Shown in pieces: positions 61,390 to 63,768 of a stretch of 64,000 bases of DNA (position 1 is its first letter; each line of letters begins with the position of its first letter). The position numbers were made by a program, and so were the translations under genes. Location: the NCBI RefSeq assembly GCF_003334305.1, contig NZ_QOWS01000009.1, one strand, 5' to 3'. The notes beneath the pieces were generated by a model, which did not search any database, was not told the origin of the DNA, and saw only the letters and a list, made by a program, of their open reading frames with translations. Source of the DNA: Escherichia coli (GTDB lineage Bacteria; Pseudomonadota; Gammaproteobacteria; Enterobacterales; Enterobacteriaceae).

Positions 61390-62574
61390 TTAAACGGGCT
61401 GCCCCTGATGCGACATCCGCGTCGCCAGCGGCAGCCAGCACAGCACGATCAACAATCCCATTAAGGTCATCAACAACCCCAGGCTGCCCTGACCGGTTTG
61501 CGGCAACATCGCAGAGAGCGACGCCAGCACGCCGGAACCAATGTTTTGCAGACCGCCGACCAGCGCGCCAGCCGTGCCCGCCAGGAAGGGGAACGGCTCC
61601 ATCGCGCCGCTGGTCGCCAGCGGAAACAGCATCCCGGCACCGAAAAAGAACAGCGCGGCGGGAACGAGCAGCGTCCAGACATTCATCACGCCAAACCAGT
61701 CGGGGATCCACATCAGCAAGCCAGCCAGCAGGCAGCAGATAACCGACTGCCACATTAACGTGGAGAAGCGTTTATTGGGACGTCCGGCAAACCATGCGCC
61801 AAAAAACGCTGCCGGAATCGGCAGAATAAACAAAATACTGACCGTCATACTGCTCAGCCCTAACACCGCGCCCATCAGCACGCCGGAGCAGGCTTCAAAG
61901 GCGGCAATCCCGGCCAGACCGCCAATCAGCATCAGCAAATAACAGTTAAAACCGCTGTTACCGAAAAGCGTTTTATAACTGGTAAGCAGGCGCGTGCGCG
62001 GTGCATCGACCGGACGCGTTTCCGGCATCCAGCGGGCCATACTGAAGGTCACACCAGCACAAAGAACCAACAAAAAGAGATAACAGGCGCGCCAGTTCCA
62101 CATCGTATCCAGCAGACCGCCGATTAGCGGTGCGAGCAACGGACTGACGAGAATCCCCATGTTTAACAGGCTGTTAGCATGGCGCAACTGTGTCCGTTCA
62201 TATAAATCTCGCGGCAAAGTACGCGCCATTACGCCGCCAACGCCGGTGCCCATCCCCTGCATCGCGCTGGCGGCAATCAACACCGTCAAACTGGAGGTCG
62301 TGACCGCGACCAGCGTTGCCAGCATAAAAATGGACATTCCGACGAGGATCACCGGTCGGCGGCCCACGCGGTCGGAAATCGGGCCATAAAACAGCTGTGA
62401 GACACCGTAAGTCAGCAGATAAGCGCCCATTACGCTCTGCACCGCCCCTTCACGGACGTTGAGATCGCGCGCCATATCGGCAATAGCTGGAATATAAATG
62501 GTTTGCGCCATCTGACCGACGGCCACGAGTAATACCAACATCAATAACAAATTGACGTTTCTTTGCCTTTTCAT
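61390..62574 (-). CDS. emrD: MFS multidrug efflux transporter
   Basis: 394 aa from MKRQRNVNLLLMLVLLVAVGQMAQTIYIPAIADMARDLNV. Confidence 0.93.
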   Translation of the reverse strand: MKRQRNVNLLLMLVLLVAVGQMAQTIYIPAIADMARDLNVREGAVQSVMGAYLLTYGVSQLFYGPISDRVGRRPVILVGMSIFMLATLVAVTTSSLTVLIAASAMQGMGTGVGGVMARTLPRDLYERTQLRHANSLLNMGILVSPLLAPLIGGLLDTMWNWRACYLFLLVLCAGVTFSMARWMPETRPVDAPRTRLLTSYKTLFGNSGFNCYLLMLIGGLAGIAAFEACSGVLMGAVLGLSSMTVSILFILPIPAAFFGAWFAGRPNKRFSTLMWQSVICCLLAGLLMWIPDWFGVMNVWTLLVPAALFFFGAGMLFPLATSGAMEPFPFLAGTAGALVGGLQNIGSGVLASLSAMLPQTGQGSLGLLMTLMGLLIVLCWLPLATRMSHQGQPV

Positions 62575-62762
62575 TATCACGGATGCTTTTATAAAAATAA
62601 TTAGAATAAGTCACTACGCATTCCCATAAATGCGGGAGAGGAATCTATCACATTGATGAATGTTAGCCAGATATACGCCAGGAATGGGGAATTGTTTAGC
62701 GGCAGAATATGTAAACAAAAGCGGCAATAAATGTTGCCGGGAGGGATTACGTGCGAACTGTA

Positions 62763-62860
62763 ACCCTCTCCCCAAAGGGGCGAGGGGGAAACCACCGTTC
62801 CCTTTCAGAAAATGAGCTAAACATTGCACGGGACGGTCCCCTCGCCCCTTTGGGGAGAGG
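62763..62860. repeat. Perfect 24-bp inverted repeat (ccctctccccaaaggggcgagggg) with 50-bp spacer
   Basis: Arm 62763-62786 is exactly the reverse complement of 62837-62860; each arm is itself near-palindromic; the right arm continues into a G-tract run ggggagagggctagggtgagggg. Confidence 0.85.
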
Positions 62861-62944
62861 GCTAGGGTGAGGGGCACAGGCAGCGCAGGTGCAAACATTC
62901 TGCTGGTAGAAGAAGCCCCCAACTCCAACCCGCACGCTAAATAT

Positions 62945-62975
62945 AAAAGGGGAGCGGTTACCCGCTCCCCTTTGG
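62945..62975 (-). terminator. Probable terminator downstream of tisB
   Basis: aaaggggagcggttacccgctccccttt hairpin immediately 3' of tisB on the minus strand, followed by ttttat on that strand. Confidence 0.6.
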
Positions 62976-62992
62976 TGCGACTTGAATCTGAA

Positions 62993-63082
62993 TTACTTCA
63001 GGTATTTCAGAACAGCATCAAGCAGTTGCAGTGCTGCAACAATGAGTTTGAGGATAAGAATGGCGATATCCACCAGGCTCAT
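62993..63082 (-). CDS. tisB: Type I toxin TisB (small hydrophobic membrane peptide)
   Basis: Reverse-strand 29-codon ORF MSLVDIAILILKLIVAALQLLDAVLKYLK, which matches the remembered TisB peptide apart from residue 2. Confidence 0.9.
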   Translation of the reverse strand: MSLVDIAILILKLIVAALQLLDAVLKYLK

Positions 63083-63316
63083 ACGCGTCTCCTGTGGTTC
63101 AGGAGCACTGCCAGCTGACGTACCTTTCCGCTGCCTGTTGCCAGCTGTTGTGCACGCGGTATCTTAAGGAGAAACGTTGTGCTTGTTGACATAACACAGT
63201 GTGCTCACGCGGGGTTAAGGCGCTGACGGCACCACCCGTTTCAGCCAGGACTTAGTGCGCCGGGTAACGATGCGGCCCCCGCATAACACATTGCGTACAG
63301 TGATATTATAGAAGTT

Positions 63317-63336
63317 TACTGTATAAATAAACAGTA
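63317..63336. promoter_or_regulatory. LexA box (SOS operator)
   Basis: tactgtataaataaacagta fits the CTGT-N8-ACAG LexA consensus; placed to control the leftward tisAB transcript and the longer rightward istR-2 transcript. Confidence 0.85.
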
Positions 63337-63442
63337 ATATTTGGACAAAACGCAAACTGTGATCGATACTCAACTATGCCCTAAATACGTCAAAATTCGT
63401 GCCGAAATTGCGCGTTCTGCGCGGAACACGTATACTTTCAGT

Positions 63443-63518
63443 GTTGACATAATACAGTGTGCTTTGCGGTTACCAGCCGCAGGCGGCTGATGAAACCTCG
63501 CTCCGGCGGGGTTTTTTG
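63443..63518 (+). ncRNA. istR: Antitoxin sRNA IstR-1 (boundaries approximate)
   Basis: gttgacataatacagtgtgctttgcggttaccagccgcaggcggctgatgaaacctcgctccggcggggttttttgtt matches the remembered IstR-1 sequence; a TATACT -10-like hexamer lies at 63431-63436; ends in a hairpin plus U-run. Confidence 0.75.
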
Positions 63519-63646
63519 TTACCTGCAATTCAGTACAAAACGTGATCAGCCCCTCAATTTTCCCTTGCTGAAAAATTTTCCATTGTCTCCCCTGTAAAGC
63601 TGTGCTTGTATAAATATTGTTAAACACAAAACCAACAAGGTCCCCA

Positions 63647-63745
63647 ATGACTACTTCCATGTTCAACGCAAAACTACTACCAACTGCGCTATCCGCCGCA
63701 GTGGTCGTCGTGCGTGTGGTGGTGGTCGTCGGCAATGCGCCGTAG
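63647..63745 (+). CDS. ivbL: ilvB operon leader peptide
   Basis: 32-codon ORF MTTSMFNAKLLPTALSAAVVVVRVVVVVGNAP, rich in Val and Leu, followed by an attenuator hairpin. Confidence 0.9.
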   Translation: MTTSMFNAKLLPTALSAAVVVVRVVVVVGNAP

Positions 63746-63768
63746 GGACTGGAACAACACACGATTCC

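Follow-up and report, generated by a model that had tools for sequence, protein, structure and literature searches.

An inverted pair of BoxC-type repeats in the tisB-emrD intergenic spacer of Escherichia coli

Results

The tisB-emrD spacer and its inverted repeat

In the window, that is, the whole 64-kb stretch of E. coli DNA that was analyzed, emrD and the tisB-istR type I toxin-antitoxin module are separated by a 418-bp spacer, which holds the small-protein gene ysdE, two hairpins of terminator type, and a long inverted repeat. The genes and hairpins of this region are as follows.

61390-62574, minus strand: emrD, with its start at 62574
62656-62730, plus strand: ysdE, small-protein gene, identical in K-12; it stops 31 nt upstream of the repeat's left arm
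62722-62739, minus strand: terminator-like hairpin plus T-run, on the emrD side of the repeat; conserved and found in all alleles
62946-62973, minus strand: intrinsic terminator of tisB, a 12-bp stem and then a T-run; 72 nt from the end of the repeat unit
62993-63082, minus strand: tisB
63061-63075: further hairpin flagged by the terminator scan
63388-63517, plus strand: istR, the sole true Rfam match in 62000-64000

A preceding reading of the same DNA from its letters alone (the sequence-only reading) had located the repeat beside the tisB terminator and emrD, in agreement with the terminator at 62946-62973 and the emrD start at 62574. The G-rich strand of the repeat is antisense to both tisB and emrD, whose RNAs carry the C-rich strand, and the G-rich sequence would occur only in a transcript continuing from ysdE on the plus strand. 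The repeat is composed of the following parts, named after the repeat family to which they are assigned below.

62748-62924, unstranded: allele-specific segment of 177 bp, standing where K-12, O157, and O145 have a 38-bp REP
62761-62787, minus strand: left arm, a truncated BoxC copy; the minus strand reads CCCCTCGCCCCTTTGGGGAGAGGGTTA, that is, C-block, loop 1, first G-block, and TTA loop, with the third (G-rich) block missing
62788-62837, unstranded: inter-arm spacer of 50 nt, which folds as the imperfect top of the long hairpin; two-armed BoxC copies at rhaA-rhaD and cpxA-yiiM in other strains have a homologous spacer of 52 nt
62839-62874, plus strand: right arm, a complete BoxC/PIT/TMECO "type A mm" unit, CCCTCGCCCC-TTT-GGGGAGAGGG-CTA-GGGTGAGGGG
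62852-62874, plus strand: G-quadruplex-type run GGGG AGA GGG CTA GGG TGA GGGG, whose first two G-tracts are also in the hairpin stem
62875-62895, plus strand: 3' flank conserved in the BoxC family, CACAGGCAGCGCAGGTGCAAAC; family consensus AACAGGCC..GCA..GTGCAAAC

The 24-mer CCCTCTCCCCAAAGGGGCGAGGGG occurs once in the 64-kb window, at 62764-62787, and its exact reverse complement is found at 62838-62861, with 50 nt between the arms. The sequence-only reading had described this perfect repeat, its spacer, and the adjoining G-run; all of these are present, with every coordinate having been placed 1 nt too low. A repeat search lengthened the arms to 27 nt, with 96% of the positions complementary (62761-62787 and 62838-62864). 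Read off the sequence, each arm alone forms a hairpin with 9 of 10 bp paired, CCCTCTCCCC/AAA/GGGGCGAGGG, which bears out the description of the arms as near-palindromic and able to fold as one long hairpin or two short ones. The G-run GGGGAGAGGGCTAGGGTGAGGGG at 62852-62874 has the canonical G-quadruplex (G4) form G3+N1-7 x4 on the plus strand, as had been proposed, and with both strands checked for four G3+ tracts with loops of 1 to 7 nt, it is the sole such motif in the window. When a degenerate 23-nt arm pattern was searched with up to 3 mismatches, only the two arms were recovered in the window and nothing in 100 shuffles. The inverted repeat is far beyond chance. Compared with shuffled controls, the folding z-scores were -7.0 for DNA, -6.9 for RNA of the plus strand, and -6.8 for RNA of the minus strand.

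Three other assignments were considered and rejected. In 62000-64000, the element matched only eukaryotic miRNA-precursor models of Rfam, whose thresholds of 65-92 bits were missed by far at 26-28 bits; the matches reflect nothing more specific than a long hairpin. The RU-1, RU-2, and RU-3 repeat units of Delihas do not account for it either, RU-3 being REP/BIME-like and a different element (PMC2759123). Several small open reading frames of 39-104 aa run over the element and encode repeat-derived peptides such as LSPKGRG; they are un-annotated in the RefSeq records examined and are an expected by-product of a G/C-rich palindrome.

Assignment to the BoxC family

The family was recognized by a literature search with the motif's own sequence. 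Holder et al. (2015, NAR 43:10126, PMC4666352) described 23 "TMECO" motifs in MG1655 and equated them with the BoxC repeats of the 1990s and with the PIT elements of Hoyne/Maher 2000. BoxC also appears among the known repeat families of E. coli, as a 56-bp element of about 32 copies (Cozzuto et al. 2008), and the same motif was found independently as the G-quadruplex groups HPG1 and HPG2, for which a G4-hairpin-duplex switch was proposed (Kaplan et al. 2016, NAR 44:9083, PMC5100583).

Window positions 62839-62874 differ by one loop base from the published type "A mm," CCCTCGCCCCTTTGGGGAGAGGGTTAGGGTGAGGGG (PMC4666352). The same right-arm unit agrees with K-12 members 7, 11, and 15 (Table 1 of Holder et al.) at 35/36 positions, the difference being a T>C change in loop 2, which reads CTA in the window and TTA or CCG in published BoxC. 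The three-block triplex motif of the family, consisting of CCCTC[G/T]CCC, a loop of 3-5 nt, GGGAGAGGG, a loop of 3 nt, and GGGTGAGGG, is present, as is the 21-nt HPG1 motif, defined as at most one mismatch to GGGAGAGGGTTAGGGTGAGGG: the window reads GGGAGAGGGCTAGGGTGAGGG, with a single mismatch in loop 2. In an alignment with four paralogues, the flanks are kept in the window copy as well, with GGAC.GTCC upstream and AACAGGCC..GCA..GTGCAAAC downstream; the core common to all fetched paralogues is GGAC.GTCCCCTCGCCCC...GGGGAGAGGGTTAGGGTGAGGGGAACAGGCC..GCAAAC. Judged by these sequence features, the tisB-emrD element is an inverted pair of BoxC, a known G/C-rich repeat that occurs in multiple intergenic copies in E. 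coli and related bacteria. The earlier suggestion of a family that is "possibly boxC-like" was thus on target, since the element matches published BoxC/PIT/TMECO, which is multicopy in nearly all E. coli. So was the statement that it is not a REP: we found no similarity, though K-12 has a REP at exactly this site.

Copy number and distribution

With 62740-62900 as the query in blastn against 5426 complete E. coli genomes, related sequence was present in 5395 of them. A genome had 12 such places in the median and 24 at most; of the 60936 places in total, almost all were chromosomal and only 28 plasmid-borne. Query coverage of at least 80%, which corresponds to the allele of this locus, was reached in 1501/5426 genomes, and in about 1440 genomes the allele with perfect arms hardly varies. 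Such near-invariance could reflect constraint, but recent common descent explains it equally well.

Paralogues sharing the common core and both flanks lie in unrelated spacers of other strains, namely, rhaA-rhaD, cpxA-yiiM, cca-bacA, and adk-hemH. All BoxC copies that we examined, in other strains and in K-12, were located between genes, and the family is multicopy and dispersed; the 64-kb window holds no second BoxC locus besides tisB-emrD.

Outside E. coli, the motif is present in Enterobacter asburiae (2024 primer table). A 2024 review counts a degenerate copy near yjbD among the tested G4s. The permissive two-armed pattern GGGCGAGGGN{40,70}CCCTCGCCCC, run over genome contigs, returned at least 120 matches; among the matches listed were chance ones in high-GC actinomycetes and planctomycetes, along with motifs resembling BoxC in a Rhizobium and a Cellvibrio MAG.

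Geometry of BoxC pairs

Inverted pairs are a trait of the family: K-12 has 5, each composed of a type A and a type B unit, and pairs are often partly deleted, with a hairpin still being possible (the "palindrome effect") (PMC4666352). Fetching the loci of the five K-12 pairs confirmed them. BoxC pairs came in two arrangements. At hrpB-mrcB, fepB, ygfF-gcvP, and alx, the G-blocks point toward each other across a spacer of 18-28 nt; at lldD-trmL, in the window, and at rhaA-rhaD and cpxA-yiiM, they point away from each other, and the spacer measures 50-59 nt. The spacer of the window pair has homologues in the rhaA-rhaD and cpxA-yiiM copies, both of which have two arms.

The window pair deviates from this family in two respects. 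Instead of type A (TTA loop) plus type B (CCG loop), both of its arms have a type-A-like core, the left unit lacking the third block; A plus B pairing is a trait of pairs and is not needed for membership in the family. Moreover, the arms of the other BoxC pairs are complementary at 76-88%, whereas those of the window match at 24/24 positions.

Alternative states of the site

In an alignment, the 177 bp at 62748-62924 stand in for the 38-bp REP-like element GGTAGGGCGGATAAGATGCGTCAGCATCGCATCCGACA of K-12, O157, and O145. The window segment is unrelated to this 38-mer, and a REP consensus, which is an imperfect palindrome of the type GCCGGATG.(9-14).CATCCGGC, was not present in it. We surveyed the alleles with the whole 418-bp spacer as the query and with representative loci; the frequency of the BoxC allele is a direct count, and the percentages are shares of evenly spaced rows.

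BoxC pair: about 1500/5426 genomes (direct count)
REP of K-12 type, 279-bp spacer: roughly 43% (evenly spaced rows)
REP of O157/O145 type, 279-bp spacer: roughly 8% (evenly spaced rows)
tisB-istR module absent, ysdE followed by ivbL (e.g., A3, Eco889): roughly 18% (evenly spaced rows)

In about 70% of the genomes, the BoxC allele is thus exchanged for a REP or lost. In tisB-less strains, the similarity ends at ~62742, 6 nt from the repeat site. Alignment with the REP alleles revealed no target-site duplication at 62748 or 62924, and no truly empty allele was found among the loci compared. The emrD-proximal 173 bp, including ysdE and the hairpin at 62722-62739, are unchanged in all alleles, and the emrD control region therefore appears to be independent of the repeat.

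A four-base difference clustered in the left arm

The O103/O121 allele of the same locus is rare (34 genomes at ≥99% identity). It differs from the window at 62773, 62774, 62777, and 62780, all in the left arm, and is otherwise nearly identical over 281 nt. Its left arm, CCCTCTCCCTGAAAGGACGAGGGG, has a B-like core, is complementary to the right arm at 20/24 positions, and is one base off the family-typical CCCTCTCCCTGAAAGGGCGAGGG found at rhaA-rhaD and cpxA-yiiM. In a simulation, the probability that 4 of 6 differences fall inside 8 nt of a 281-nt stretch was about 6e-4, and all four changes shift complementarity in the same way. This clustering suggests one templated correction event.

Because type A plus type B is the usual arrangement in the family, the perfect 24-nt complementarity is probably a derived peculiarity of the window allele. 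The event was probably either a quasipalindrome "correction" by an intramolecular template switch or an arm-to-arm conversion, in which the right arm would have been copied onto an imperfect, family-typical left arm. Alternatively, it is possible that the O103/O121 arm was converted from a paralogue; the flanking differences that are informative for arm polarity fall in the allele-specific segment, which has no outgroup.

Predicted folding

The following folding energies are predictions.

Full 115 nt, one long hairpin: DNA -39.9 kcal/mol, RNA -70.5 kcal/mol
Two halves separately, short hairpins summed: DNA -17.2 kcal/mol, RNA -39.3 kcal/mol
Isolated 36-mer, hairpin: DNA -8.5 kcal/mol, RNA -19.0 kcal/mol
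Isolated 36-mer, G-quadruplex: DNA -12.6 kcal/mol, RNA not favored

Even with G4 folding allowed, the minimum-energy structure of the full length is without a G4, because the first two G-tracts lie inside the stem. In the full context, the long hairpin is thus predicted to far outcompete the G4, which comes out ahead only for the isolated 36-mer with DNA parameters. The latter prediction fits the circular dichroism (CD) data of Kaplan et al., in which the HPG2 oligonucleotide was a G4 with K+ but a hairpin with Mg2+/Li+, and paired into a duplex with its complementary strand regardless of the ion (PMC5100583). GC skew is positive on the plus strand of the window, which would place the G-rich unit on the lagging-strand template; there, it could fold whenever the strand is transiently single.

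Discussion

Our analysis assigns the inverted repeat between tisB and emrD to BoxC and places it in an allele-specific segment that alternates with a REP. We consider it quite likely that this inverted BoxC pair has no dedicated role for tisB, ysdE, or emrD and is near-neutral, structure-prone DNA, the arms of which were perfected by one templated event. The complete unit on the plus strand (62839-62874) and the truncated unit on the minus strand (62761-62787), set apart by a family-typical 50-nt spacer, form part of the 177-bp allele that replaces the REP. The main consequence would be local instability: single-stranded DNA, for example, on the lagging-strand template, could fold into a very stable hairpin, an isolated BoxC unit might also adopt a G-quadruplex or an intrastrand triplex, and such folding may promote polymerase stalling, slippage, and template switching. 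Local instability of this kind agrees with the site having three alternative states and with a templated change within one arm, and structure-induced instability may be the cause of the polymorphism. Among 56 strains, loci that contain the triplex motif were significantly more rearranged than controls (PMC4666352); the lack of a triplex footprint in vivo in the same study tells against structure-induced instability.

Several observations speak to the absence of a locus-specific function. The sequence-only reading had considered a structured regulatory element or terminator, and this finds no support: neither strand has a U-tract after the hairpin, the family had no activity in earlier tests, and the allele is swapped or lost in most genomes. 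On the element, the terminator scan flagged no intrinsic terminator and the promoter scan no promoter. As summarized in PMC4666352, earlier work of the Maher laboratory found PIT elements to be without promoter or terminator activity and without an effect on RNA polymerase, and found DNA polymerase to be blocked only in vitro. The same study reports that in vivo DMS probing gave no triplex footprint, with duplex being formed whenever the complementary strand was present, and that the neighboring genes are of every class, without functional bias and without association of the motif with transposons, phages, or plasmids. A regulatory function has been argued for from conservation and gene-ontology enrichment (PMC5100583); in the open literature from 2015 onwards, we found no new functional work on the BoxC family. 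As far as sequence analysis shows, the element is a recognized multicopy repeat, which is the outcome that the sequence-only reading itself had named as telling against a locus-specific role, and we conclude that the pair at tisB-emrD probably lacks one.

Among the rival explanations, a locus-specific RNA structure fares best, although we regard it as unlikely. Here, the repeat would act as a barrier to transcripts, a stabilizer of 3' ends, or an RNase III site, insulating emrD from SOS-induced tisB transcription or setting the 3' end of ysdE. The RNA hairpin, with 24 perfect pairs and about 8 further ones, is predicted to be highly stable whichever strand is transcribed (-75.7 and -73.9 kcal/mol; z-scores of about -6.8), and it is suitably placed, following the tisB terminator at a distance of 72 nt and the ysdE stop codon at 31 nt. 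In addition, K-12 has a REP at the same position, and REPs as a class stabilize upstream mRNA. However, nothing about the stem was flagged as terminator-like, terminator-like hairpins at 62946-62973 and 62722-62739 already flank the element, and the PIT/BoxC tests summarized in PMC4666352 gave no terminator, promoter, or RNA polymerase effect; the allele is also missing in about 70% of genomes, and its paralogues lie in unrelated contexts. A related view would make the perfect-armed pair more than a passive repeat: structure at the REP/BoxC site (~62742-62924) might make it a hotspot of recombination and template switching, at which the tisB-istR border was remodeled time and again, with a REP in some lineages, the BoxC pair in others, and in still others an absent module with its breakpoint 6 nt away; the perfect 24-bp stem might in addition have gained a locus-specific role, e.g., by separating SOS-induced tisB transcription from emrD/ysdE as a structural or RNase III barrier. 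This combination appears doubtful to us.

Somewhat less credible still is the arrival of a miniature inverted-repeat (MITE-like) element, in which a two-armed BoxC of about 130 bp with terminal inverted repeats would have transposed into the spacer by means of a transposase acting in trans. The long inverted arms, the unit size of about 110-135 bp, and the multicopy and strictly intergenic distribution would suit such an element, as would the strain-dependent presence at tisB-emrD, rhaA-rhaD, and cpxA-yiiM and the similar motifs in distant Proteobacteria. Against this, the site has no target-site duplication, a REP is replaced and about 65 bp of non-family sequence are added rather than a clean insertion being made, and the left arm is without its outer block. 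Furthermore, pairs occur in two opposite geometries with different spacers, single units are common, and a transposon, phage, or plasmid association is lacking (PMC4666352), and only 28/60936 places are plasmid-borne.

Least probable by our estimate, and indeed hardly to be expected, is the G-quadruplex-hairpin-duplex switch of Kaplan et al. for HPG1/HPG2, in which an ion- or supercoiling-dependent G4 on the plus strand would regulate transcription of the neighbors: the motif is the only canonical one in 64 kb and one mismatch from HPG1, the HPG2 oligonucleotide switches between G4 in K+ and hairpin in Mg2+/Li+ (PMC5100583), and the isolated 36-mer is predicted to prefer the G4 as DNA, but the long hairpin (-39.9 kcal/mol as DNA) ties up the first two G-tracts so that the minimum is without a G4, duplex forms with the complementary strand regardless of the ion (PMC5100583), the G-rich strand is antisense to tisB and emrD, and the motif is a family feature beside genes of every class with no functional correlation (PMC4666352). 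Each rival lacks its defining signature: the RNA structure a U-tract or a measured activity, the switch a G4 able to compete in its context, and the MITE-like element a target-site duplication together with a clean insertion.

Several known systems resemble the window element in part. With published BoxC/PIT/TMECO, the window element shares the three blocks, the conserved flanks, the intergenic and multicopy distribution, the inverted pair with one member partly deleted, and a locus rearranged between strains; unlike these, it is not among the 23 K-12 sites, since K-12 has a REP here, and it pairs two type-A cores perfectly over 24 nt, whereas published pairs combine A and B at 76-88%. As in HPG1/HPG2, a C-rich tract ending 3 nt upstream of the G-run can pair with the first two G-tracts, but the second arm of the window gives a far more stable long-range hairpin that competes with the G4. 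Like ERIC/IRU (RU-1) and YPAL (RU-2) (Delihas 2007, PMC2759123), which measure about 100-170 bp, the element is of similar size, has long-hairpin potential, and is multicopy and intergenic; the sequences are unrelated, however, and that of the window has no target duplication or defined termini.

REP/BIME elements resemble the window BoxC in being short palindromic intergenic repeats that mark variable intergenic spots, and a REP stands at this very position in K-12, O157, and O145, but BoxC has no sequence similarity to the REP. REPs have a RAYT-type transposase partner and mRNA-stabilizing as well as DNA gyrase-, Pol I-, and IHF-related roles; to our knowledge, no such partner or roles have been demonstrated for BoxC. 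Quasipalindromes are hotspots of template switching, as described by the Ripley model and followed with reporters of the Lovett laboratory in E. coli. Simultaneous base changes clustered in one arm of an imperfect inverted repeat, all perfecting complementarity, are common to these hotspots and the window, with the difference that here the event is deduced from natural alleles (window versus O103/O121) and its direction is not polarized.

The family, its hairpin, triplex, and G4 potential, the inverted pairing, and the variability between strains have all been published, so that the finding is real but ordinary. As BoxC has been known since the 1990s and its biophysics was addressed in 2000, 2015, and 2016, the element carries little weight as a discovery. 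The perfect and imperfect alleles and the REP/BoxC/module-loss polymorphism beside a toxin-antitoxin locus are minor points. For annotation, scans for G-quadruplexes, long hairpins, or "regulatory" palindromes in enterobacteria will meet BoxC, which should be masked first. As a case study, the locus offers three alternative states of one intergenic site beside a type I toxin-antitoxin module, and its two natural alleles, one with arms complementary at 24/24 positions and the other at 20/24, could be taken as a model of how templates are switched at quasipalindromes in wild genomes.

Two repeat families at one intergenic site

In the window lineage, positions 62748-62924 form a 177-bp segment that carries the BoxC pair, the inverted repeat of BoxC (PIT/TMECO/HPG1) units between tisB and emrD. 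At exactly the same position, E. coli K-12, O157, and O145 have a 38-bp REP element, which indicates that two unrelated repeat families alternate there. In strain S6aCHROMc, an A-to-G substitution in the right arm at the equivalent of window position 62856 (GGGGGGAGGG) abolishes a single base pair, leaving the arms of this one strain matched at 23/24 positions where they are otherwise fully complementary. Strict maintenance of the perfect stem is thus not observed.

The entire tisB-istR type I toxin-antitoxin module (~830 bp, window ~62742 to ~63575) was found to be missing in E. coli A3 and Eco889, where ~190 bp of unrelated sequence lies between ysdE and ivbL in its place. The left breakpoint of this loss is 6 nt from the REP/BoxC site. 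In our whole-spacer comparison across complete E. coli genomes, the module was absent from roughly 18% of genomes, a share estimated from evenly spaced rows of the match list.

Features of the ysdE and tisAB-istR regions

The following features were annotated on either side of the BoxC pair.

62656-62730, + strand: ysdE, a small-protein gene of 25 codons, stop codon counted; the gene is intact and does not differ from its K-12 counterpart
62722-62739: conserved hairpin with a 6-bp stem, enclosing the ysdE stop codon, with a T-run after the stem on the strand opposite to ysdE
63318-63337: consensus LexA box (CTGT-N8-ACAG), TACTGTATAAATAAACAGTA, between tisB and istR

Because its stem is followed by a T-run on the strand opposite to ysdE, the hairpin at 62722-62739 is a terminator-like site; the control region of emrD lies directly downstream of it. 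The LexA box is as expected for the SOS-controlled tisAB promoter. A direct repeat at 63183-63203 and 63443-63463 (+ strand; GTTGACATAACACAGTGTGCT and GTTGACATAATACAGTGTGCT) has one copy in the tisAB leader region, transcribed from the - strand, and the other inside istR, transcribed from the + strand, in agreement with the known IstR-1/tisAB antisense pairing region.

Palindromic repeats and BoxC-like motifs in other bacteria

Many copies of palindromic repeats with outer arms GGGGCGAGGG/CCCTCGCCCC were observed in each of two MAGs, Planctomyces SYJG01 and Clostridia CANQXR01. In SYJG01 they take the form of tandem GGGGCGAGG-type runs opposite their complement, and in CANQXR01 that of long hairpins, ~75 nt in length and perfectly paired. 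Neither set is BoxC; both seem to represent repeat families of their own.

Inverted pairs of true BoxC-like motifs with the three-block arrangement (C-block and two G-blocks separated by loops; e.g., CCCTCTCCCTAACCCTCTCCCCAAAGGGGCGAGGGG) were detected in an uncultured bacterium (L015), a Cellvibrio MAG (L062), and Rhizobium sp. BK602 (L070). The occurrence of such pairs in distant Proteobacteria agrees with the wide distribution of the motif reported by Holder et al. (PMC4666352).
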